Notes under the pieces: model-generated
Told to the model about the DNA's origin: nothing
The model's input: only the letters and a program-made list of their open reading frames with translations
Database searches by the model: none
Translations under genes and position numbers: made by a program
Shown: piece after piece, positions 10,325 to 28,711 of the stretch
Position numbering within the stretch: the stretch's first letter is position 1
Layout: each line of letters begins with the position of its first letter
From: Vectrevirus T145P2
Sequence record: OZ035802.1
DNA length: 44,662 nucleotides
Reading direction: 5' to 3' (one strand)

Positions 10325-10654
10325 ATGGAACGCAACGCTAACGCTTACTACAACCTTCTGGCTGCAACTGTTGAAGCATTCAACGAGCGCATCAAGTACG
10401 ATGAGATTCGTGAAGATGATGATTACTCTGATGCACTGCATGAGGTTGTAGATAGCATGGTGCCAGTTTATTACAGCGAAATCTTTACTGTGATGGCTGC
10501 TGATGGCATTGATGTTGATTTTGAAGATGCTGGTTTGATTCCTGATACGAAGGATGTAACCAAGATTCTACAAGCTCGCATCTATGAAGCTCTTTATAAT
10601 GATGTACCAAATGACAGCGATGTAGTTTGGTATGAAGGCGAAGAAGAGGAATAA
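10325..10654 (+). CDS. ocr: Ocr-like DNA-mimic anti-restriction protein (T7 gene 0.3 homolog)
   Basis: 109 aa, very acidic; recognisable similarity to T7 Ocr as I recall it (IKYDEIREDDD...VPVYYSEIFTVMAADGIDVDFEDAGLIPDTKDV..ILQARIYE) and EEEE tail. Confidence 0.8.
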   Translation: MERNANAYYNLLAATVEAFNERIKYDEIREDDDYSDALHEVVDSMVPVYYSEIFTVMAADGIDVDFEDAGLIPDTKDVTKILQARIYEALYNDVPNDSDVVWYEGEEEE

Positions 10655-15080: not shown

Positions 15081-17069
15081 ATGGCTATTATTCAGAATGT
15101 ACCGTGTCCTGCCTGTCAAAAGAATGGACATGATATTACTGGCAACCATCTTATGATATTTGAGGATGGCGCTGGTTACTGTAACCGTGGTCACTTCCAT
15201 GATAACGGCAAGCCTTATTACCATAAGCCAGAGGGTGGCATCGAGATAACCGAATTACCTATTACTGGCAATATCAAATATACACCTTCTCAGTTTAAAG
15301 AGATGGAGAAGGAAGGGAAGATTAGCGACCCTAAGCTACGCGCCATCGCACTTGGTGGTATGCGTATGAAAGACCGTTGGGAGGTCATGAATGAGCAAGA
15401 AAGGGCAGACCAAGAAGCAGAGTGGAAACTTGATGTTGAATGGTTCCTCACGCTTAAGCGTAAGAATCTTGTTTCCCGACACATTCGCGGCGACATTTGC
15501 GCATTGTATGATGTACGTGTCGGACACGATGAAGATGGTAGAGTCTCACGGCATTACTATCCACGCTTCGAGAAAGGTGAGCTAGTAGGCGCCAAGTGTC
15601 GCACATTACCTAAAGACTTTAAGTTTGGTCATTTAGGTAAACTCTTTGGTATGCAAGATCTTTTCGGTATGAATACTTTGTCTCACGTGTTAGACAAGGG
15701 AAGACGAAAGGATTGCTTGCTTATTGTGGGCGGCGAACTGGATGCACTAGCAGCACAGCAAATGCTCCTTGATTCTGCCAAGGGTACTAAGTGGGAAGGC
15801 CAGCCTTACCATGTATGGTCTGTCAATAAAGGTGAGTCTTGCCTTGAAGAGATAGTACAGAACCGTGAACACATCGCCCAATTTAAGAAGATTATATGGG
15901 GTTTTGATGGAGATGAGGTAGGGCAGAAGCAGAATCAGCAAGCGGCTCGCCTGTTTCCTGGCAAATCCTATATCCTTGAATACCCTTCTGGTTGCAAAGA
16001 TGCTAACAAGGCATTGATGGCTGGCAAGGCTAAAGAGTTTGTTGATGCTTGGTTTAATGCCAAGTCATCTGATGAAGTCTTTGGTAGCCAGATTAAATCT
16101 ATCGCATCTCAAAGGGATAAGCTCAAGGCTGCACGTCCAGAGCAAGGGCTATCATGGCCTTGGCCTAAGCTGAACAAGGTAACGCTAGGTATTCGTAAGA
16201 ACCAGCTTATCATTGTAGGTGCAGGCTCTGGTGTAGGTAAGACTGAGTTCCTCCGCGAAGTGGTTAAACATCTTATTGAAGAACACGGTGAATCTGTAGG
16301 CATCATTTCTACAGAAGACCCGATGGTCAAGGTGTCCCGTGCTTTTATCGGCAAGTGGATTGATAAGCGTATTGAGTTACCGCCAACCAACGACCCGAAA
16401 GAAGACGGATACCGTGAGGTGTTCGACTACACCGAGGAAGAAGCTAACGCTGCCATTGATTATGTGGCTGATACAGGAAAGCTATTTGTGGCTGACCTAG
16501 AAGGCGACTATTCTATGGAGAAGGTAGAGCAAACTTGCCTAGAGTTTGAGGCTATGGGCATTTCTAATATCATCATTGATAACTTAACGGGGATTAAATT
16601 AGATGAGCGTGCTTTTGGTGGGAAGGTTGGTGCACTTGATGAATGCGTCAAACGAATTGGTACTATCAAAGACCGACATGCGGTTACGATTTTCCTTGTC
16701 TCTCACCTTACACGTCCTCCGGCAAACCGTACCCAACACGAAGAAGGTGGCGAAGTTATCCTTTCTGACTTCCGAGGCTCAGGCGCTATCGGATTCTGGG
16801 CATCTTACGCCTTGGGGATTGAGCGTAATACAAGAGCTGAAACGCTTGATGAAAGGACTACCACGTACATCTCTTGTGTCAAAGACCGCGACCAAGGTAT
16901 CTACACAGGAACCAAAGTCATGCTCAAGGGTGACATTCAGACCGGACGTTTGAGAGAACCACAAGCTAGAACAAGGTCGTTTGATACAGGCGAAGCAAGG
17001 CAACAAGAAGTACCGGATTTACCGGACACTATAGAAGAGACAACCTTTGACGATGAACAGGGGTTTTAA
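15081..17069 (+). CDS. DNA primase-helicase
   Basis: 662 aa; N-terminal Cys-rich zinc ribbon; Walker A GAGSGVGKTEF; acidic C-terminal tail ending in Phe as in T7 gp4. Confidence 0.9.
   Translation: MAIIQNVPCPACQKNGHDITGNHLMIFEDGAGYCNRGHFHDNGKPYYHKPEGGIEITELPITGNIKYTPSQFKEMEKEGKISDPKLRAIALGGMRMKDRWEVMNEQERADQEAEWKLDVEWFLTLKRKNLVSRHIRGDICALYDVRVGHDEDGRVSRHYYPRFEKGELVGAKCRTLPKDFKFGHLGKLFGMQDLFGMNTLSHVLDKGRRKDCLLIVGGELDALAAQQMLLDSAKGTKWEGQPYHVWSVNKGESCLEEIVQNREHIAQFKKIIWGFDGDEVGQKQNQQAARLFPGKSYILEYPSGCKDANKALMAGKAKEFVDAWFNAKSSDEVFGSQIKSIASQRDKLKAARPEQGLSWPWPKLNKVTLGIRKNQLIIVGAGSGVGKTEFLREVVKHLIEEHGESVGIISTEDPMVKVSRAFIGKWIDKRIELPPTNDPKEDGYREVFDYTEEEANAAIDYVADTGKLFVADLEGDYSMEKVEQTCLEFEAMGISNIIIDNLTGIKLDERAFGGKVGALDECVKRIGTIKDRHAVTIFLVSHLTRPPANRTQHEEGGEVILSDFRGSGAIGFWASYALGIERNTRAETLDERTTTYISCVKDRDQGIYTGTKVMLKGDIQTGRLREPQARTRSFDTGEARQQEVPDLPDTIEETTFDDEQGF
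17005..17030 (+). promoter_or_regulatory. SP6-like phage promoter embedded in 3' end of primase-helicase gene
   Basis: GATTTACCGGACACTATAGAAGAGAC; encodes part of the helicase C-terminal tail. Confidence 0.6.
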
Positions 17070-17230
17070 TGGAAATTATTAAACCAGTATTGAATATCGG
17101 TATTGAGATCCTATTCATGCTTGTGATCGCAGATTATGCTGCACGATATGGATTCAAGAAAGCTGTGAAACTTATCGTTGCATCTGGTTTTATTATGTCA
17201 ATGTTCTTTATTGTAACACGCCTTATCTAG
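17069..17230 (+). CDS. hypothetical small membrane protein (53 aa)
   Basis: TAATG overlap with helicase stop; two hydrophobic segments. Confidence 0.35.
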   Translation: MEIIKPVLNIGIEILFMLVIADYAARYGFKKAVKLIVASGFIMSMFFIVTRLI

Positions 17231-17243
17231 TGTATTTATCAGG

Positions 17244-17267
17244 GCTTGTCTCACATGTGAGACAGGC
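17244..17267. repeat. extended GCTTGTCTCACATGTGAGACAGGC palindrome, copy 3
   Basis: 16-bp core with flanking complementarity. Confidence 0.7.
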
Positions 17268-17302
17268 TCTTATTAAGTACATTAAATAACTGGAGATTGA
17301 TT

Positions 17303-17986
17303 ATGTATAACTTAGTGTTGAATGTAGGTGACTTTGTACGCAACATCAAGAAAGATTCAAGTCGCTATCTTTGCCGTGGTGTTGTAACCTTTGTAGGTGA
17401 GAACCTGTATTATGTAGAATATCACAGTGGTGTTAAGCAGTATTACCACAAGAAGACAGCACATAAATATCTTGAAAAGATTGTAGAGATAAACAATCAA
17501 TGTAAGTGCATACATGATAAGGTTTGCGATAAATGTGCTCGCCAGATGCTTAAGAATTTCCTAGCTCCTCTTTATTATGGTGCTGGCCCTCAAACACTAG
17601 CAGAGTACATGGCAGAAAAGAAAACCACACTCAAGAAAGAGCGTCGCAATGTAATCACTGGTAAGACTCAAAGTGAGATGATTAAGCAATGTGGCACTGC
17701 ATTAGGTGTTACACAGTTTAATACTCGTGCATTGGGTAAATCCACAGGACAAGCTATGGTAAAGATTGGAGAAGCCATGATGCATCCAAATGTACCTGTG
17801 CGAATCATGGATGTTGACCATGCAATCACAGAACAAGGTAAGCAACGACGTGTAATTAATAAGCATTTTGCCGACACTATAGAAGGTATTATTCGTAAGC
17901 AAGGGTTGAAAGGTCTTCACATCTTAAATGGTGAAGAATTACTGTATCTACCTATCGTTACTGAAGAAACATACGTGAATATCTAA
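17303..17986 (+). CDS. hypothetical protein with Cys cluster
   Basis: 227 aa; CKCIHDKVCDKC cluster; function unknown. Confidence 0.55.
   Translation: MYNLVLNVGDFVRNIKKDSSRYLCRGVVTFVGENLYYVEYHSGVKQYYHKKTAHKYLEKIVEINNQCKCIHDKVCDKCARQMLKNFLAPLYYGAGPQTLAEYMAEKKTTLKKERRNVITGKTQSEMIKQCGTALGVTQFNTRALGKSTGQAMVKIGEAMMHPNVPVRIMDVDHAITEQGKQRRVINKHFADTIEGIIRKQGLKGLHILNGEELLYLPIVTEETYVNI
17867..17887 (+). promoter_or_regulatory. candidate weak phage promoter inside coding sequence
   Basis: TTTTGCCGACACTATAGAAGG keeps the GACACTATAGAAG core but diverges upstream. Confidence 0.3.
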
Positions 17987-17996
17987 GGGGTTAATC

Positions 17997-18212
17997 ATGA
18001 CTAAGGTATTAATTTATATGCGTGGACCTCATAAATGCTATGCAGTTGTAGCACCAGATGGTGTCAAGCCATATGGTACTTCAAAGGGGTTGGCATTAAT
18101 AGGTGCCAGTCGTAGTGTAAGTTTTCAGAGGGAACTTTTCGGTCATTGGACTGAAAAAGAGTTCCGTAAAGATTTTAAAGTTATTGGCTCTTTTATGGTG
18201 GAGACTAAGTAA
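17997..18212 (+). CDS. hypothetical protein (71 aa)
   Basis: ORF with GGGG RBS. Confidence 0.4.
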   Translation: MTKVLIYMRGPHKCYAVVAPDGVKPYGTSKGLALIGASRSVSFQRELFGHWTEKEFRKDFKVIGSFMVETK

Positions 18213-18466
18213 TGAAACAACGTGCAATCAAACGCTGCATCAAGCGTGCTCAGAAACAATTACGTCGTGGTACATTTAAAGGCCGTATGCGTATTGTAAG
18301 TTTTAATGCTAAAGGTATGGTCTTTGTTAGATCTTATCAAGAAGGTCGAACTATTTATGTAAACGATAAGGGTATTGGCTGGGGCGTAGGCGCTGCACTA
18401 GGTAATGGTGGTGGTCACGGTCATTGGGTAGGTAGCAAAGTAGAGGTGGCAATCTCTTATGTCTAA
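18212..18466 (+). CDS. hypothetical protein (84 aa), Gly-rich C-terminal part
   Basis: ATG overlaps upstream stop. Confidence 0.4.
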   Translation: MKQRAIKRCIKRAQKQLRRGTFKGRMRIVSFNAKGMVFVRSYQEGRTIYVNDKGIGWGVGAALGNGGGHGHWVGSKVEVAISYV

Positions 18467-18632
18467 ACACAGCCTTAAGATGTTCGATGGTCACGAAGAC
18501 CTGCAAGCACAAATTACTAACCAAGCCTTCCTGTTTGCACAGTTAACTATAGCTGAAGCAAAGAAGAACAGCCTGACGCGTGAGCAGGTTATCAAGGAAG
18601 GTGGAGTGAAACGTAAGATTCGCAGTCGATAA
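18459..18632 (+). CDS. hypothetical small ORF (57 aa)
   Basis: overlapping start; weak. Confidence 0.3.
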   Translation: MSKHSLKMFDGHEDLQAQITNQAFLFAQLTIAEAKKNSLTREQVIKEGGVKRKIRSR

Positions 18633-18642
18633 GTCGAGGGTT

Positions 18643-18658
18643 GTCTCACACGTGAGAC
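18643..18658. repeat. GTCTCACACGTGAGAC palindrome, copy 4
   Basis: one-base variant of the core; flanks also complementary. Confidence 0.65.
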
Positions 18659-18689
18659 AGCCTTTCATCATATTGATTGGAGGTGCATT

Positions 18690-18797
18690 ATGCCAAGTGA
18701 TTATGATTCTGATTGGAATTACTATGACTCAATGAATCCAAAACCAGAACGTTCAGATGATTACTACGAAACAGAGGCAATGTATGAAGACTATTAA
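18690..18797 (+). CDS. hypothetical tiny acidic ORF (35 aa)
   Basis: GGAGGTG RBS; D/Y-rich. Confidence 0.25.
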   Translation: MPSDYDSDWNYYDSMNPKPERSDDYYETEAMYEDY

Positions 18798-19002
18798 ATT
18801 AAGCAAGGTTTGCTCTTGCGGTAAAGGCTATCGCAGTCGTGTTGATGGTAAGTGTGAAAACTGCCGCACTAAAAGGCAGAAAGATCACAATAATAAATAC
18901 CACATGCACTTAATGTATCTTGATCTTAAAGCTACACCTGATTCTGTATTAGGTAAAAGTCTTAGAGTTAAATACTTTGGAGCAATCTATGAAATCAATT
19001 GA
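18787..19002 (+). CDS. hypothetical small Cys-rich zinc-ribbon-like protein
   Basis: MKTIKLSKVCSCGKGYRSRVDGKCENCR. Confidence 0.4.
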   Translation, partial: KTIKLSKVCSCGKGYRSRVDGKCENCRTKRQKDHNNKYHMHLMYLDLKATPDSVLGKSLRVKYFGAIYEIN

Positions 19003-21535
19003 TTGGAAGAAGGAAGCAGAAGGGCGTATCTTAGTAATGGATGCGGAAGCTAAAGGTCTGCTGGATGCTATCCGCTACGGTCATCGCGAAGATGTACACA
19101 TCATTTGCTGCATGGACTTGCTCACCACTGAGGAGTTCCTCTTCTTCGACCCATATGAGATGCGTGACCCTGAAGCAAGAGAACACCTGAAGGAATGGGA
19201 AGGTCATCAAGATGGTGACTTGGTTGATGGTGTTAACTTCCTGAAGCACTGTGAAGCTATTGTGTCGCAGAACTTCCTAGGGTACGACGGCCTTCTATTT
19301 GAGAAAGCATTCCCCGATATCTGGAAAGGCTTTAACTATACCGAGAGACGCGGCAAGGGCAGACTCCGCGCTGACCTGTGTCCGGTACGCGTCATGGATA
19401 CGCTGGTCATGAGTCGCCTGTTAAACCCCGATAGACGCCTCCCTCCGCAAGCATACGCCAAAGGCATGGGTAACGTAGCCCCTCACTCAATTGAGGCGCA
19501 CGGCATTCGTATAGGCCGTTATAAGCCGGAGAACGAGGATTGGTCTAAACTAACTGACCACATGGTACATCGTGTACGCGAGGACGTGGCGATTGGTCGT
19601 GACTTGTTCCTCTGGCTCTTTAACGGGGAATGGATGGAGCACAAACGCCGTGGCGTGAATAAACGCACTGGCCTAGGTATTGAGACAGCCTTCCACATGG
19701 AGTCCATTGTGGCGCTGGAGATGAGCCGTCAGGCCGAGCGTGGATTCCGTCTGGATATAGATAAAGCATTAGCACGATGCGAGGAATTGGACGCTAAGAT
19801 TGATGAGACAGTCGCAGCGTTCCGTCCGCACATGCCTATGCGTATCAAGTCTAAACCTTTTAAACCGGAAGAAAAGAATGAAGTATGCCAACGCGCAAAT
19901 GAGTATGGAGCTAGCAACAATATACCTACTGTCCTTGACCCCTCTCACTTTCTTCACGCAGAGAGACGAGGAGATCGCAAGACAGTATGGAGTGTCACTA
20001 CTAAGTCTGGTGATTGGTCGGCTAGCGTCAAGAAAGACTTTCCTCACCTTAGAGGAAACCGTAATGACACGCCAAGCATCAAGTGGATTGGCGCTTACTC
20101 GCCTGTTACTTTCGAAGAGATTCCCTTGGGTAACAGGGATACAGTTAAGCAAGTGCTCTATGATTATGGATGGAAAGGTGTTGAATTTAACGATACCGAG
20201 CAAGCGCATCTCGATGAGCACGGAGTGTTACCCAAACCTTGGAGTGGTAAGATAAATGAAAAGTCCCTTACTTTATGGCAAGAGAGAGCCGCACGTGAAG
20301 GTAAAACAGTCCCTGATTGGTGCTTGGGTATCGCTGCATGGTACATACTCGTATCCCGTCGTGGTCAGATCCTCAACCGTGGTGACGTTGAAGCCTTCGA
20401 CCAGAAGGGGGTGTGGCCTTCGCAAGCTGGTATACGAAAGTGTCGCGGCCTTGTACCTGTAGCATTTAACAAGGAGTTAGGAATCAATGCGCAGCAATAC
20501 TACGAAAGGTACGGATGCTGGCCTACGTCAGACAAGGATGACGGAGAATGGCGTGTGCCAGCTATTGCTATTAGTATTGGAACTTCTACGTTCCGTATGC
20601 GTCATCGTAACGTGGTTAATATTCCTGCCCGTGGTTTGTATCCTTTACGTGATTTATTCATAGCCGGTAAAGGTAAGCTAATCCTTGGTTGTGATGGTGC
20701 TGGTCTTGAACTACGTGTACTGTCTCACTTCATGAATGACCCTGAATATCAAGATATTGTACTGCATGGTGACATTCACACCCATAATCAAATGAAGGCT
20801 GGTCTTCCTAAGCGTGACATGGCGAAGACATTTATATATGCCTTCCTATATGGGTCTGGTATAGCTAACCTTGCAGCAGTATGTGGTGTTACTGAGGAAG
20901 AAATGGAGGAAGTTGTGGCAAGATTTGAGGTTGAACTACCATCTCTTGCACGCCTTCGTGAGAATGTTATCGCACAAGGTAACAAGTTTGGCTACCTACA
21001 AGCACCTGATGGTCATTGGGGTCGCATCCGTATGTCTGGTGGTGAACTTAAAGAGCACACTATGCTTAACGTACTACTCCAGATGACTGGTTCTCTGTGT
21101 ATGAAATACGCATTGGTCAGAGCGTTTGCAGTGATGCGCAAGGAAGGTGTGGCCTTAGATAGCATGGGAAACCCTTGCGGTATAGCTAACGTGCACGATG
21201 AAATCCAGATGGAAGTCCCTGAAGATGAGGTCTTGTATCTCAACTACGACTTGCCTTTCACCTTAGAAGGGTTCGAAACAGAGAAGGCTGCTGTGAAAGC
21301 AGTGTTCGATGCAGAGGAGAAACGTGTTCATGTGGATTCTGAAGGACGTATGTGGTCTGCTGCAAATCTCGTTAGTGTTGATGCTGATGCTGGTGTACTT
21401 CATTGCCAGCGTCGTTATCACCGTGCAGGGCATATCATTGCCGATGCAATGACTTGGGCTGGTCATTATTTGAAGATGCGTTGTCCGATGGCAGGTGAGT
21501 ATAAGATTGGTGCAAGCTGGAAGGAAACACACTGA
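18989..21535 (+). CDS. DNA polymerase, family A (T7 gp5-like)
   Basis: Motif A DGAGLELRVLSHF, motif B KTFIYAFLYGSG, motif C HDEIQMEV; N-terminal 3'-5' exonuclease region. Confidence 0.92.
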   Translation: MKSIDWKKEAEGRILVMDAEAKGLLDAIRYGHREDVHIICCMDLLTTEEFLFFDPYEMRDPEAREHLKEWEGHQDGDLVDGVNFLKHCEAIVSQNFLGYDGLLFEKAFPDIWKGFNYTERRGKGRLRADLCPVRVMDTLVMSRLLNPDRRLPPQAYAKGMGNVAPHSIEAHGIRIGRYKPENEDWSKLTDHMVHRVREDVAIGRDLFLWLFNGEWMEHKRRGVNKRTGLGIETAFHMESIVALEMSRQAERGFRLDIDKALARCEELDAKIDETVAAFRPHMPMRIKSKPFKPEEKNEVCQRANEYGASNNIPTVLDPSHFLHAERRGDRKTVWSVTTKSGDWSASVKKDFPHLRGNRNDTPSIKWIGAYSPVTFEEIPLGNRDTVKQVLYDYGWKGVEFNDTEQAHLDEHGVLPKPWSGKINEKSLTLWQERAAREGKTVPDWCLGIAAWYILVSRRGQILNRGDVEAFDQKGVWPSQAGIRKCRGLVPVAFNKELGINAQQYYERYGCWPTSDKDDGEWRVPAIAISIGTSTFRMRHRNVVNIPARGLYPLRDLFIAGKGKLILGCDGAGLELRVLSHFMNDPEYQDIVLHGDIHTHNQMKAGLPKRDMAKTFIYAFLYGSGIANLAAVCGVTEEEMEEVVARFEVELPSLARLRENVIAQGNKFGYLQAPDGHWGRIRMSGGELKEHTMLNVLLQMTGSLCMKYALVRAFAVMRKEGVALDSMGNPCGIANVHDEIQMEVPEDEVLYLNYDLPFTLEGFETEKAAVKAVFDAEEKRVHVDSEGRMWSAANLVSVDADAGVLHCQRRYHRAGHIIADAMTWAGHYLKMRCPMAGEYKIGASWKETH

Positions 21536-21651
21536 TGGACAGGTTTGATGTTGTTTGCCTATTCTCTATCTTCTTTCTTATATTCCTTATGCTTGCTTGC
21601 TATGGAAGTATGCGATTAGGTATACCTGATGAAGAGGAGGGTTACGATTGA
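21535..21651 (+). CDS. hypothetical small membrane ORF (38 aa)
   Basis: ATGA overlap with polymerase stop; hydrophobic. Confidence 0.3.
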   Translation: MDRFDVVCLFSIFFLIFLMLACYGSMRLGIPDEEEGYD

Positions 21652-21749
21652 TGCAAACTGCTTTTATCATTCTTGGGATCATATTATTTATGGTAGTATT
21701 CTGGGCTTTCTCTGGCATTGACCCAGATTGTGATGGTAACTACGACTGA
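21651..21749 (+). CDS. hypothetical small membrane ORF (32 aa)
   Basis: overlapping start; hydrophobic. Confidence 0.3.
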   Translation: MQTAFIILGIILFMVVFWAFSGIDPDCDGNYD

Positions 21750-21817
21750 GTTATACTCAAGGTCACTTACGAGTGGCCTTTATGAATAACTTATTCCTAC
21801 TTATTTTGTCTAACATG

Positions 21818-21840
21818 ATTTACTGGACACTATAGAAGGA
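21818..21840 (+). promoter_or_regulatory. SP6-like phage promoter
   Basis: ATTTACTGGACACTATAGAAGGA. Confidence 0.6.
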
Positions 21841-21904
21841 AATCCTAGGTAATCTAGGTTTATAAGGTAGTATAGGTAATTAAGTAAATATAGGAGATAT
21901 AAAT

Positions 21905-22282
21905 ATGTCTATGGTAACTACTCTGGTATTCGTGGCTCAATACTTTCGTGGTCTTGCTAATAAGTTCAAGTCCAAGGCTATCAAAGCTATTGAGGCTCGC
22001 ATCGAAGCAGTACAGGCAGAGCAAGTTAAAGTTGAAGAGCATCGTAGTTCTCAAATGATTGACTGTCATAACCGCTACTATGCATCTCGTGATGAACTAA
22101 ATGCACGTCAAGTCAAAGAGGTAGAAGATATGCTGGCACGTCACCAGCAAGAGCGTGACAGCCTGAAAGCTGAATTTGAAGAGAACAAGGCATCAATTGC
22201 TCTTGTAAATCAAGCTGCATCTGACAGCCTGAAGAAAGAGATTGTTATGCTGGAAATAGAACTGGACAACTTGACTAAATAA
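21905..22282 (+). CDS. hypothetical coiled-coil protein (125 aa)
   Basis: hydrophobic N-terminus then heptad-like charged helix. Confidence 0.5.
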   Translation: MSMVTTLVFVAQYFRGLANKFKSKAIKAIEARIEAVQAEQVKVEEHRSSQMIDCHNRYYASRDELNARQVKEVEDMLARHQQERDSLKAEFEENKASIALVNQAASDSLKKEIVMLEIELDNLTK

Positions 22283-22287
22283 GGGTT

Positions 22288-22587
22288 ATGATGGAAGAAG
22301 TGATTCAAGCTAAACATGTAGGTATCATCTTTCGTGATTTAGAGCAGCGTAAAGTTGCAGGTCACACTCGTCTGGCTAAAGAAGACGATACAGCAATCAC
22401 TACTGTGGAACAAGCAGATGCATATCGTGGTCCAGAGTTTACTCAAGGTGAAACTTGTCATCAATTGAGCCTTTCACTTTGTGACACTATGGCTAGTGTA
22501 AATGTACAAGAGGTTGAAGATGGTGAATGTGTTAGTTATGTCTACCCTCTCGATACTATTGCACGTATTAAGGTAGTTCATAAGTAA
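22288..22587 (+). CDS. hypothetical protein (99 aa)
   Basis: ORF follows upstream gene closely. Confidence 0.5.
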   Translation: MMEEVIQAKHVGIIFRDLEQRKVAGHTRLAKEDDTAITTVEQADAYRGPEFTQGETCHQLSLSLCDTMASVNVQEVEDGECVSYVYPLDTIARIKVVHK

Positions 22588-22608
22588 TTACTGGACACTA
22601 TAGAACAA
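22586..22608 (+). promoter_or_regulatory. SP6-like phage promoter
   Basis: AATTACTGGACACTATAGAACAA overlapping upstream stop codon. Confidence 0.55.
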
Positions 22609-22664
22609 TAGGTCGGCTTAGTTCGGCCTATGATTGTGTAGTGTAACAATAGGAGACTAAATAA

Positions 22665-23471
22665 ATGGCACGTGGTGATTTTGATTTTGGTGCTCAGGTT
22701 ACTAAAGCTGAAGGTAAAGTATTTAAGAACCCTGAAGTTGGTGATCATGAAGCAGTAATCTCTGGCATCATTCATGTTGGTTCCTTCCAAGATATCTTTA
22801 AGAAAGGTAATACCACTGAAGTTAAGAAGCCAGCAAACTTTGTTCTTGTTAAGATTATCCTGATGGGTGACGACGATAAGAATGAAGATGATTCTCGCAT
22901 GGAACAATGGATGGCTGTGCCTCTGAAGTCTGGTGATAAGGCAACACTGACTAAGTTCCTGAATGCAGTTGACCCTAAAGAGTTGCTGGGTGGCTTCGAT
23001 GATTTTATCGGTGAATGTCTGACTGCAACTATGGTTGGTTCTGGCGACAAGAATGATGATGGTACTTTCAAGTATGTTAACTGGAAAGGCTTTGGCGGTA
23101 TGCCTGATAAGTTGAAGAAGCTTGTACTGGCTCAGGTAGAAGAGGAAGGTCTGTCTATGACAGGTCATATCACCTTCGACAAGCTGACCAAAGAAATCCT
23201 TGATGACATCCCAGCTAACTTGGTACGTCAATACTTCCTGAACGAGACACCTCGTGGTAAGAACCTGTCTGTTGCTGGCTCTCACGTAGAAGCTATTATC
23301 AAAGCTGCTCGTGAAGAAGACCCTGAATGGAAGAAGGCTAAGAAGAAAGACGAGGAAGATGCTACCCCAGCTAATCGTAAATCTCTGGATACTGGTGAGT
23401 CTGTTCCACAGGAAGTACCTGAAGCAGAAGATACTCCTGCACCGGAGATGGATGAGGACGCGGAATATTAA
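22665..23471 (+). CDS. hypothetical acidic protein, candidate ssDNA-binding protein
   Basis: 268 aa; codon usage looks highly-expressed-like; acidic C-terminal tail ending in Tyr (EMDEDAEY), reminiscent of T7 gp2.5 tail logic. SSB call is inference only. Confidence 0.5.
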   Translation: MARGDFDFGAQVTKAEGKVFKNPEVGDHEAVISGIIHVGSFQDIFKKGNTTEVKKPANFVLVKIILMGDDDKNEDDSRMEQWMAVPLKSGDKATLTKFLNAVDPKELLGGFDDFIGECLTATMVGSGDKNDDGTFKYVNWKGFGGMPDKLKKLVLAQVEEEGLSMTGHITFDKLTKEILDDIPANLVRQYFLNETPRGKNLSVAGSHVEAIIKAAREEDPEWKKAKKKDEEDATPANRKSLDTGESVPQEVPEAEDTPAPEMDEDAEY

Positions 23472-23480
23472 GGAGAAAGG

Positions 23481-23699
23481 ATGAAAGTACAAATCGTAAC
23501 CCTGCACTGCAAGAAAGGAATTACAACTCTTGGCGGCAACACTTTTCACTCCTTCTCTGAAGGGGACACATATGCCGACCTGCACTACATCTGGCGCGAC
23601 GGACAGCACGTGGTGAACTACAGCGACCCAGCTACGGGGAAACGCCACGGCGTATCGCTTCCGGCGCATGACATTGCTCAGGTGAACACAGTTTTATAA
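23481..23699 (+). CDS. hypothetical protein (72 aa)
   Basis: AGGAGAAAGG RBS. Confidence 0.45.
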   Translation: MKVQIVTLHCKKGITTLGGNTFHSFSEGDTYADLHYIWRDGQHVVNYSDPATGKRHGVSLPAHDIAQVNTVL

Positions 23700-23700
23700 A

Positions 23701-23716
23701 GTCTCACGTGTGAGAC
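23701..23716. repeat. GTCTCACGTGTGAGAC palindrome, copy 5
   Basis: variant core, directly after stop codon and upstream of promoter. Confidence 0.65.
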
Positions 23717-23730
23717 AAATCGGTGTCCGG

Positions 23731-23757
23731 TATTTACTGGACACTATAGAAGAGAAG
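23731..23757 (+). promoter_or_regulatory. SP6-like phage promoter
   Basis: TATTTACTGGACACTATAGAAGAGAAG. Confidence 0.65.
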
Positions 23758-23804
23758 AATTTTAATCGGCGATAATGCCATAACCAACAAAAGGAGAATT
23801 TAAT

Positions 23805-24176
23805 ATGTTCAAGATTGAAACTATCGTAAACCGTGTTGTTAAAGGTGCTGCTCTGGTATCCGTTGAGTCTTTCATTATCGTCGATGAAGCTGATCAACTG
23901 GTAGCTGGTACTAAGGCTTACGATACCCGTGAAGAAGCTCAGGCTAAGATTGACAGCATGGGTAACTTCGCTGCTGGTCTGGAGTTCGCTCGTGCTTGCT
24001 TCCCTGAGCAGGCTGACAAAGCCCAGATCGGGAAGGCTAACATCGTAGCTGAATATCTGGATTGGATTGCTGCTGGTAAACCAGTGAAAGAAGTTAAAGC
24101 TGCTGAAGAAGCTGAAGCTCCTGCAGTAGAAGTGTCTGCACCGGAAGCTCCGGTTAGCGAAGAGGAAGAGTTTTGA
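23805..24176 (+). CDS. hypothetical abundant-looking acidic protein (123 aa)
   Basis: AAGGAGA RBS; biased codon usage; own promoter and downstream terminator hairpin; C-terminal tail PVSEEEEF. Confidence 0.6.
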   Translation: MFKIETIVNRVVKGAALVSVESFIIVDEADQLVAGTKAYDTREEAQAKIDSMGNFAAGLEFARACFPEQADKAQIGKANIVAEYLDWIAAGKPVKEVKAAEEAEAPAVEVSAPEAPVSEEEEF

Positions 24177-27463: not shown

Positions 27464-27580
27464 ATGACTTGTCCTAATTGTGGAAGTGAAGAAACAGAAC
27501 ATGTAGTTATGTCAGATACTTATCATTTCTACTTCTGTCATAGCTGCGACACCACCATTGAAGAGGAAGAAGCTGTATGA
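27464..27580 (+). CDS. hypothetical zinc-ribbon mini-protein (38 aa)
   Basis: CPNCGS...CHSCD; overlaps ligase start. Confidence 0.35.
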   Translation: MTCPNCGSEETEHVVMSDTYHFYFCHSCDTTIEEEEAV

Positions 27581-28524
27581 ATATATTCCAATTCCTAGGT
27601 CTTCCAGAAGACCACCGCAATCACCCATTCATGCTGGTGAAACATCGCGGTGAAGTACCTGAGAAGAAATTAACTTTTCCATGTTATGCACAGGTAAAAC
27701 GAGATGGTATATTTAGTGCTGTGGTTGTTCGCAACGATGGTGTCGTTGGTATCTTTGGACGCACTGGAAAGAAACTGGCTAACACGGAAACCTTGGAAGA
27801 ATCTTATTCAGCTTTCCCTACTGGCATTTATCTCGGTGAGTTGCAATCTATGGCTATTGATGTCTACCTTGAAGCACTTTCTGGAGTAGTTAACCCTAAC
27901 CGCACTGAGCCACTGGATTTCATAGGCCAGCAGATTAAAGACAACCTGTATATCGACTTCTTCGATATGTTAACCATTAAGGCATTCCATGATGGATTCA
28001 CTGATGTTTCTTATCTCAAACGTTACGATGCTTTACATCGTCGCATCGGCGCTCATCTTAGCGGGTACAACGCTATCCTTCCTATTACTCCTTGCCATAA
28101 TGAGCGAGAAGTTGAAGCGTTTGCGCAAGAGCAAATAGACGCAGGCCGAGAGGGTGCTGTGTTTAAACTGGACTGTGATTATGAAGCAGGCCACAAAGGT
28201 TATCGTCAGACTAAAGAAGTCCGTAAGGTAACTTATGACCTTACTTGTATTGGCTTTGAAGAAGGCAAAGGTAAGTACAAAGGTAAGGTAGCTAACCTCA
28301 TTTTCAAATGGAAAGGGGGCAAGACAATCAAAGCTATGTTAGGTAAAGGGTGGACTCATGCAGATGCAGAACAGATGTTCCACGATATTAAACATGGTGG
28401 ACGATTGAATGTCATTGGTAAAATCTTTGAAGTAAAAGGTCTTCAGGATTCAAGCAAGGGCAACATTCGTCTGCCCAAAGCGGGAGAATTAAGACATGAC
28501 AAAGATGAACCAGACTTCTTTTGA
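27577..28524 (+). CDS. ATP-dependent DNA ligase
   Basis: 315 aa; adenylation motif KRDG (AQVKRDGIFSAVV) and overall nucleotidyltransferase-like layout. Confidence 0.8.
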   Translation: MNIFQFLGLPEDHRNHPFMLVKHRGEVPEKKLTFPCYAQVKRDGIFSAVVVRNDGVVGIFGRTGKKLANTETLEESYSAFPTGIYLGELQSMAIDVYLEALSGVVNPNRTEPLDFIGQQIKDNLYIDFFDMLTIKAFHDGFTDVSYLKRYDALHRRIGAHLSGYNAILPITPCHNEREVEAFAQEQIDAGREGAVFKLDCDYEAGHKGYRQTKEVRKVTYDLTCIGFEEGKGKYKGKVANLIFKWKGGKTIKAMLGKGWTHADAEQMFHDIKHGGRLNVIGKIFEVKGLQDSSKGNIRLPKAGELRHDKDEPDFF

Positions 28525-28711
28525 TAGCATGAAGGCAACTCGTGCAGTTGAGGTAGCAGAAGCTATCTTCGAAACTTTATCCTGTGGCATGGAAGTGCCA
28601 TATACTTTACTTGCTGATGCAGAAGAACTTGGTCTTTCTGTAGAAGCTATCCAAGAGAAGGTTGACGAATTATATGGTACAGACGAAGAAGAAACCGACG
28701 ATTTCATTTGA
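28496..28711 (+). CDS. hypothetical acidic protein (71 aa)
   Basis: GGAGA RBS; overlaps ligase 3' end. Confidence 0.4.
   Translation: MTKMNQTSFDSMKATRAVEVAEAIFETLSCGMEVPYTLLADAEELGLSVEAIQEKVDELYGTDEEETDDFI

Follow-up and report, generated by a model that had tools for sequence, protein, structure and literature searches.

Conserved acidic C-terminal tails with an aromatic tip on three replication-region proteins of Vectrevirus T145P2, one of them a predicted single-stranded DNA-binding protein

Three proteins encoded in the replication region of Vectrevirus T145P2 (OZ035802.1), namely the primase-helicase gp9, the 268-residue protein gp16 and the 123-residue protein gp18, end in an acidic tail with a terminal aromatic residue. 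Our analysis confirms that these tails are real and beyond chance. By analogy with phage T7, we favour, with moderate confidence, the reading that they form a common replisome docking motif for the family-A DNA polymerase gp13. One of their bearers, gp16, is quite probably the SSB (the protein binding single-stranded DNA, ssDNA) of phages of the K1E/SP6 type, as judged from its predicted structure. The window analysed here, a stretch of 44,662 nucleotides (44.7 kb), corresponds to approximately an entire, permuted K1E-like (K1E/SP6-type) Vectrevirus genome with all its genes on the plus strand, and the gene numbers used here follow K1E. Over bases 16990-24176, sequence identity reaches 96-98% with the replication regions of three Escherichia phages, PhiNW-E1, Mt1B1_P10 and K1E, all of which belong to the Autographiviridae, Molineuxvirinae, genus Vectrevirus.

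The C-termini given in the initial annotation (TFDDEQGF for the primase-helicase, EMDEDAEY for the 268-residue protein and PVSEEEEF for the 123-residue protein) are exact, and the polymerase was correctly placed at 18989, the open reading frame (ORF) 18977/18989-21535 matching DNA_pol_A. We defined a tail by its last eight residues, requiring F, Y or W at the end, at least three D or E and no K, R or H, and applied this definition to 56 non-overlapping plus-strand ORFs. Only gp9, gp16 and gp18 (3/56) carry such a terminus. Internal 8-mers of the same proteome satisfy the definition in 36 of 13,449 cases (0.27%), and it is because three of 56 termini stand against this low internal rate (binomial P = 4.8e-4) that the tails cannot be attributed to chance. 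The relevant features are as follows.

15081..17069, plus strand: gp9, primase-helicase of the T7 gp4 type, 662 residues (PHROG 239; Pfam DnaB_C and Toprim_2; K1E gene 9)
16956..17066, plus strand: C-terminal tail of gp9, residues 626-662, net charge -8, end DDEQGF
16965..17030, plus strand: ARTRSFDTGEARQQEVPDLPDT, 22-residue segment of the gp9 tail in common with the gp16 tail (local alignment)
18977..21535 (ATG at 18989), plus strand: gp13, family-A DNA polymerase (Pfam DNA_pol_A; PHROG 17)
19823..20161, plus strand: thumb insertion of gp13, residues 283-395, net charge +6 (alignment with T7 gp5 and six SP6-like polymerases; charge calculation)
22665..23471, plus strand: gp16, 268 residues, predicted ssDNA-binding protein
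22740..23096, plus strand: β-barrel of gp16 with a predicted oligonucleotide/oligosaccharide-binding (OB) fold, residues 26-144 (predicted model)
23352..23468, plus strand: disordered acidic tail of gp16, residues 230-268, net charge -12, tip DEDAEY (predicted local distance difference test score, pLDDT, <50)
23370-23435, plus strand: ANRKSLDTGESVPQEVPEAEDT, inside the gp16 tail
23805..24176, plus strand: gp18, 123 residues, α/β domain (residues 1-97) plus tail
24096-24173, plus strand: disordered A/E/P-rich tail of gp18, residues 98-123, end SEEEEF

Conservation is a stronger argument for the tails than the binomial test. We compared 45 loci in total, comprising annotated relatives from Erwinia (Era103), Vibrio, Ralstonia, Pseudomonas, Marinomonas and Aeromonas phages together with 39 IMG/VR loci, and counted unique tails with an aromatic residue within the last three positions. 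Every tail of the three families has one: 27/27 for the primase-helicase, 29/29 for gp16-like and 27/27 for gp18-like proteins, and all 27 unique primase-helicase tails are both acidic and F/Y-terminated. Among the controls, such an aromatic is seen in 0/20 unique tails of the DNA polymerase, in 2/27 of endonuclease VII, in 2/26 of the phosphoesterase and in 0/9 of gp17. The tip itself was not found on the polymerase, exonuclease, endonuclease VII, phosphoesterase or gp17 of the related loci, and the polymerase terminates in SWxETH in every homologue, never in an acidic-aromatic end. Among gp16 homologues, 44 of 46 end in E[YF] or D[F], down to 35% identity. Close homologues of gp18 end in EEEF (120/120), and its diverse homologues have F or Y within the last three residues (97/97).

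Aligned from their right end, the tails of each of the three families reach their highest information content (3.4-4.1 bits) at the last two positions, and the linkers upstream are variable and free of basic residues. The common consensus of the tip, [DE][DE]xxE[FY]-COOH, is the best-conserved part of each tail and has been kept across at least seven phage genera on three unrelated protein families; it was recovered from Vectrevirus, Zindervirus and Eracentumvirus and from Vibrio, Ralstonia, Pseudomonas (Uliginvirus), Marinomonas (Murciavirus) and Aeromonas phages. On these alignments, the tip behaves as a short linear motif under selection. A clade of Klebsiella phages (loci L035-L037) has Tyr at all three tips, which is suggestive of co-variation.

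The precedent for such tails comes from T7, in which gp2.5 ends in DEDGDF and gp4 in SNDTDF. The gp2.5 tail anchors on a basic patch at the front of the polymerase (K587/K589/R590/R591) and its terminal Phe is essential (PMC12339929). The same tail also contacts the helicase and is required for stimulation of the gp6 exonuclease (PMC4124056), and it reportedly regulates the DNA binding of gp2.5 itself (PMC10359462). The initial annotation had proposed the T7 analogy, and it stands at the level of the motif; it extends neither to homology, which is undetectable between gp16 and gp2.5, nor to the front basic patch, which is not conserved. Both phages are Autographiviridae with a family-A polymerase, and the T7 tips ...DTDF and ...DGDF resemble ...EQGF and ...DAEY of T145P2. 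However, the penultimate residue is Asp in T7 and Glu in tips of the T145P2 type, where a terminal Tyr is also allowed; T145P2 has a third tail-bearing protein, gp18, without T7 counterpart; and the helicase and SSB tails of T145P2, in contrast to those of T7, have a second, upstream motif in common.

This second motif lies approximately 10-30 residues upstream of the tip. The identity of gp9 as a T7 gp4-type primase-helicase is clear (PHROG 239 DNA primase/helicase, E 4e-187; DnaB_C and Toprim_2 on one chain), and its tail, ...TFDDEQGF, has a net charge of -8 over 37 residues and ends in Phe. Local alignment of the gp9 and gp16 tails pairs ARTRSFDTGEARQQEVPDLPDT with ANRKSLDTGESVPQEVPEAEDT at a score of 60, as compared with 25±5 for shuffled sequences, and yields the pattern S[FL]DTGE...QEVP...DT. 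A recent DNA duplication as the source of this similarity was ruled out, as the two segments are identical at only 38 of 66 nucleotides and at 7 of 22 third codon positions; the second motif is therefore kept at the protein level. SFDTG...VP in the helicase and LDTG...VP in gp16 are conserved together in K1E, SP6, Klebsiella, Proteus, Pectobacterium and Lelliottia phages, all within the enterobacterial SP6/K1E clade. The pattern suggests that second motif and tip could form a bipartite docking element of the helicase and the SSB, not of gp18.

The assignment of gp16 as an SSB, which we consider quite probable, draws on predicted structure, tail and genomic position. The protein is a member of PHROG 862 (E 2.2e-60), a family that carries no function label, and its homologues are labelled "hypothetical" in all 215 phage records that hold one. 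From 24 homologues, AlphaFold2 predicts (mean pLDDT 77.8) an N-terminal arm (residues 1-19, pLDDT <50), a β-barrel (26-144, pLDDT 82-94), a helical domain (148-230) and a disordered tail (230-268). The best structural neighbours of the OB-fold model are ssDNA-binding proteins. Like T7 gp2.5, gp16 would thus combine an OB core with an acidic tail (net charge -12, pLDDT <50) that ends in an aromatic residue, and we read it as an SSB because its anatomy is that of an SSB, in which a flexible linker joins an OB core to an acidic interaction tail with an aromatic tip. Bacterial SSB has the same layout, with Phe as the terminal residue of its C-terminal tip (SSB-Ct), and E. coli SSB ends in DDDIPF. 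It differs from gp16 in that gp16 has no Pfam SSB match, is predicted as a monomer-type unit and lacks Ile-Pro in its tip.

An exhaustive profile search gathered 80 clusters of gp16 relatives, in which many distant members end in LDDDIPF, DDEIPF or DDEVPF, that is, in the bacterial SSB-Ct tip, and another subgroup in PPGFxYDPxTNSF followed by a few more residues. One fold thus carries at least three alternative tip modules, [DE]xxE[FY], DD[DE][IV]PF and PPGFxYDPxTNSF. This exchange of modules suggests that the superfamily may switch partners through its tip.

Genomic position points in the same direction. In all SP6-like phages examined, gp16 occupies the slot between the family-A polymerase and the 5'-3' exonuclease, and the DDDIPF-type relatives, where their context is readable, directly follow a family-A polymerase and precede a 5'-3' exonuclease and endonuclease VII. 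DDDIPF-type tails are not a mark of polymerase-less phages, as these contigs encode a family-A polymerase too. No SSB is present among the 62 annotated features of K1E, and none of the nine replication-region ORFs scanned with Pfam and PHROG, from the primase-helicase to the exonuclease, matches an SSB family. A prior SSB assignment for gp16 of SP6 or K1E was not found in the literature searched, which excluded the SP6 genome papers. The initial annotation had named the 268- and/or 123-residue proteins as candidate replisome partners (SSB or accessory factor). The OB-fold model, the disordered acidic tail, the DDDIPF tips of relatives, the slot and the lack of another annotated SSB speak for the former as an SSB; nothing suggests that the latter is one.

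Sequence comparison alone links gp16 to no known SSB. It has no match to any Pfam family, SSB and DUF669 included, and its hidden Markov model finds no known SSB among PDB sequences. Profile comparison by hhalign gives a probability of 0.07% (E 0.71) against T7 gp2.5, that is, no detectable homology, and is equally negative against the SSB of phage N4 (0.4%). A parallel may be the DUF669 proteins and N4 SSB, which Kazlauskas, Krupovic & Venclovas (2016, PMC4889955) predicted to be SSBs with acidic tails and a highly diverged OB fold. Members of this group, like gp16, are phage proteins without a recognisable SSB domain, have acidic C-terminal tails and occur in genomes that lack a known SSB. 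In phiKMV-like Aeromonas phages, a protein called DUF669-containing by the authors who described those phages is encoded where gp16 would be expected, between polymerase and exonuclease. Such a protein (Bolek p30) aligns weakly with the OB core of gp16 in hhalign (E 5.8e-4, probability 29%), with an NEDGS motif in common. A Foldseek search of gp16 against viral models returned only uncharacterised phage proteins, of which two are labelled DUF669 (E 6.6e-5 and 2.3e-4) and one is Xp10 37L. Nevertheless, N4 SSB and the Bolek protein differ from gp16 in lacking the acidic-aromatic tip, and the Pfam DUF669 model matches none of 69 representatives of the gp16 family. A further comparison is offered by PrgE of plasmid pCF10 (PDB 8S4S), an atypical monomeric OB-fold DNA-binding protein with 15% sequence identity to gp16. 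PrgE differs from gp16 in having neither an acidic-aromatic tail nor the extra helical domain, and it binds double-stranded DNA as well as ssDNA.

The N-terminal arm of gp16 (residues 1-25; 22665-22739) is itself highly conserved, at F6, G9, A10, G17, F20, N22 and P23. In PrgE, the N-terminal arm contacts the neighbouring monomer on ssDNA (PMC11137577), and by analogy the arm of gp16 may act as a PrgE-like cooperativity arm. The genes for gp15.5 (22288-22587) and gp17 (72 residues, 23481-23699) flank that of gp16, and the two proteins may be paralogues, since gp17 weakly matches the PHROG of gp15.5 (phrog_8057, E 5e-4).

The third bearer of the tip, gp18, consists of a small α/β domain and a disordered tail and is acidic overall (isoelectric point, pI, 4.4). 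An identity as a UPF0339/DUF1508 (YegP-like) protein was considered and dropped, there being neither a Pfam match nor a confident fold match. The protein is unrelated to gp16 and to the long phiKMV-type protein, and in an hhalign comparison of the gp16 and gp18 profiles the four-residue tip is the sole part that aligns. Nonetheless, gp18 is found in 212 and gp16 in 215 phage records, virtually the same set with matching host distributions, and in every case the gp18 gene stands downstream of the gp16 gene, one or two genes away. Since it keeps the same tip so strictly, gp18 may well use the receptor of the other tails.

How could such tails operate? We envisage one motif on gp9, gp16 and gp18, made of a flexible, acidic linker free of basic residues and the tip [DE][DE]xxE-[F/Y]-COOH, by which the three tails would compete for one basic site on gp13 that serves all of them, and would pass proteins on there. 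A candidate docking region is the basic thumb insertion, which we infer from its charge and position: it lies where T7 has its thioredoxin-binding domain, is longer than and different from the T7 insertion, and carries a net charge of +6 in a protein of net -11. (The literature searched contained nothing on thioredoxin dependence.) Through such docking, the helicase would be held at the polymerase, the polymerase could engage the SSB and displace it, and gp18 would reach the fork, where it might serve as accessory factor or regulator. In addition, the gp16 tail probably folds back on its own DNA-binding cleft. It is possible, though on the doubtful side, that helicase, SSB and gp18 plug the same polymerase pocket in a three-way 'tail code', with gp18 as a new replisome regulator or adaptor and the gp16 superfamily as a large, misnamed SSB family that swaps the tips E[FY], DDDIPF and PPGFxYDPxTNSF. 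If this were true, gp18 could, for example, substitute for a host accessory factor or, in competition with the tails of SSB and helicase, act as a timer.

Several points weigh against docking on gp13, or against the roles given to gp16 and gp18 in it. Because gp13 has no conserved counterpart of KWKRR, the front basic patch of T7, in the alignment with T7 gp5 and six SP6-like polymerases, the receptor site on gp13 is a guess, and the helicase ring, the exonuclease or a host protein could serve as receptor just as well. The F/Y covariation among the tips is confounded by phylogeny. No confident or informative match was obtained for the fold of gp18, and the NCBIfam name for the gp16 superfamily is 'replication initiation protein'. 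One rival explanation accepts the tails and places their receptor elsewhere, on the helicase ring or the 5'-3' exonuclease, or has them act mainly in cis, as an electrostatic shield or ssDNA mimic on the protein that bears them. The helicase contact of the T7 gp2.5 tail and its role in gp6 stimulation, its effect on the protein's own DNA binding and the missing front patch all favour such a view. However, a purely cis role would leave unexplained why the terminal aromatic is the best-conserved position on three unrelated folds and why gp18, which has no evident DNA-binding fold, bears the motif at all; the helicase would be an odd sole receptor because it bears a tail itself. We hold this explanation to be unlikely. 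It is quite improbable that the tails mimic the host SSB tip and recruit or titrate host SSB-interacting proteins instead of organising the phage replisome. Although the near-perfect SSB-Ct tips of distant gp16 relatives speak for such mimicry, DEDAEY, SEEEEF and DDEQGF lack the Ile-Pro required by host SSB partners, polymerase, helicase-primase, exonuclease and ligase are all phage-encoded, and even the contigs with DDDIPF-type relatives encode a family-A polymerase.

The two remaining alternatives concern single proteins. That gp16 is a replication-initiation or origin-binding protein and not an SSB could be read from the family NF046043, 'phage replication initiation protein, NGO0469 family', which is matched by 66 of 69 representatives of the gp16 superfamily (P0167-P0245; best E 3e-54) and weakly by gp16 itself (18.1 bits, below the cut-off of 75). 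Yet no experiment stands behind this name, which traces to two similarities cited in a 2007 annotation table, one to a nanovirus Rep (26% identity, 109 residues) and one to a primase (32%, 87 residues) (PMC1931599). As the name rests on these weak similarities and conflicts with an OB-fold, SSB-like anatomy, it is probably a misnomer propagated by NCBI annotation. The model of gp16 is that of an OB fold with an SSB-like tail. Furthermore, phages of the T7 group start replication by way of transcription by RNA polymerase and can do without an initiator, and we regard an initiator role as most improbable. For gp18, the rival reading is an acidic anti-host factor, such as a DNA mimic or nuclease inhibitor comparable to T7 gp5.9, with a tail that would resemble the others only on the surface and with no part in the replisome. 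Its gene lies directly upstream of the exonuclease gene, as do T7 genes 5.5-5.9, and both its low pI and its uninformative fold match would suit such a factor. By contrast, the terminal F/Y is kept in 217 of 217 homologues within the same tip consensus as in the helicase and gp16, gp18 co-occurs with gp16, and T7 gp5.9 lacks such a tip, so that we judge an anti-host role rather unlikely.

Other C-termini in the window recall these tails to varying degrees. The ATP-dependent DNA ligase (27577-28524), which ends in RHDKDEPDFF, was tried as a fourth member and dropped: a terminal aromatic is found in only 14 of 22 unique tails, none of the 22 is acidic by our definition, and the aromatic of the homologues always directly follows the basic motif VI RxDK. 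The ligase is thus probably outside the tail system. A gp10-like protein of 229 residues (17297-17986), encoded between the primase-helicase and the polymerase, ends in PIVTEETYVNI; NPIVTEETYV plus 0-2 residues is kept in homologues down to approximately 35% identity, and this C-terminus may be a further acidic-aromatic docking motif. A gp25-like protein of 71 residues (28496-28711) shows a looser version of the theme, with a conserved acidic tail, ELYGxDEEExDD, and a variable end (DDFI in T145P2; DYQY, TDY, AYY, QDY or non-aromatic in relatives). Finally, a 109-residue ORF (10325-10654), the counterpart of K1E gene 3 with its annotation of Ocr-like DNA mimic against restriction, has an acidic tail that ends in YEGEEEE without a terminal aromatic.

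That acidic, aromatic-tipped tails organise the replisome is already known in principle from T7, T4 and bacterial SSB. What our analysis adds is the prediction of gp16 (PHROG 862) as the SSB of SP6-like phages, which is well supported computationally by fold, tail and tip exchange among relatives; the likely misnaming of NF046043; a small third tail-bearing protein, gp18; and a second motif common to the tails of helicase and SSB. That the tails dock on the polymerase is plausible by analogy. As the missing SSB, gp16 would fill a gap in the SP6/K1E group, to which therapeutic and model phages in wide use belong. The acidic linker with E-[F/Y]-COOH offers a simple signature to spot replisome partners in Autographiviridae beyond T7, and it marks the uncharacterised gp18 as a third protein with the putative docking motif. 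The motif, its conserved terminal residue and the candidate basic insertion of the polymerase make the docking idea directly testable with peptides and point mutants.

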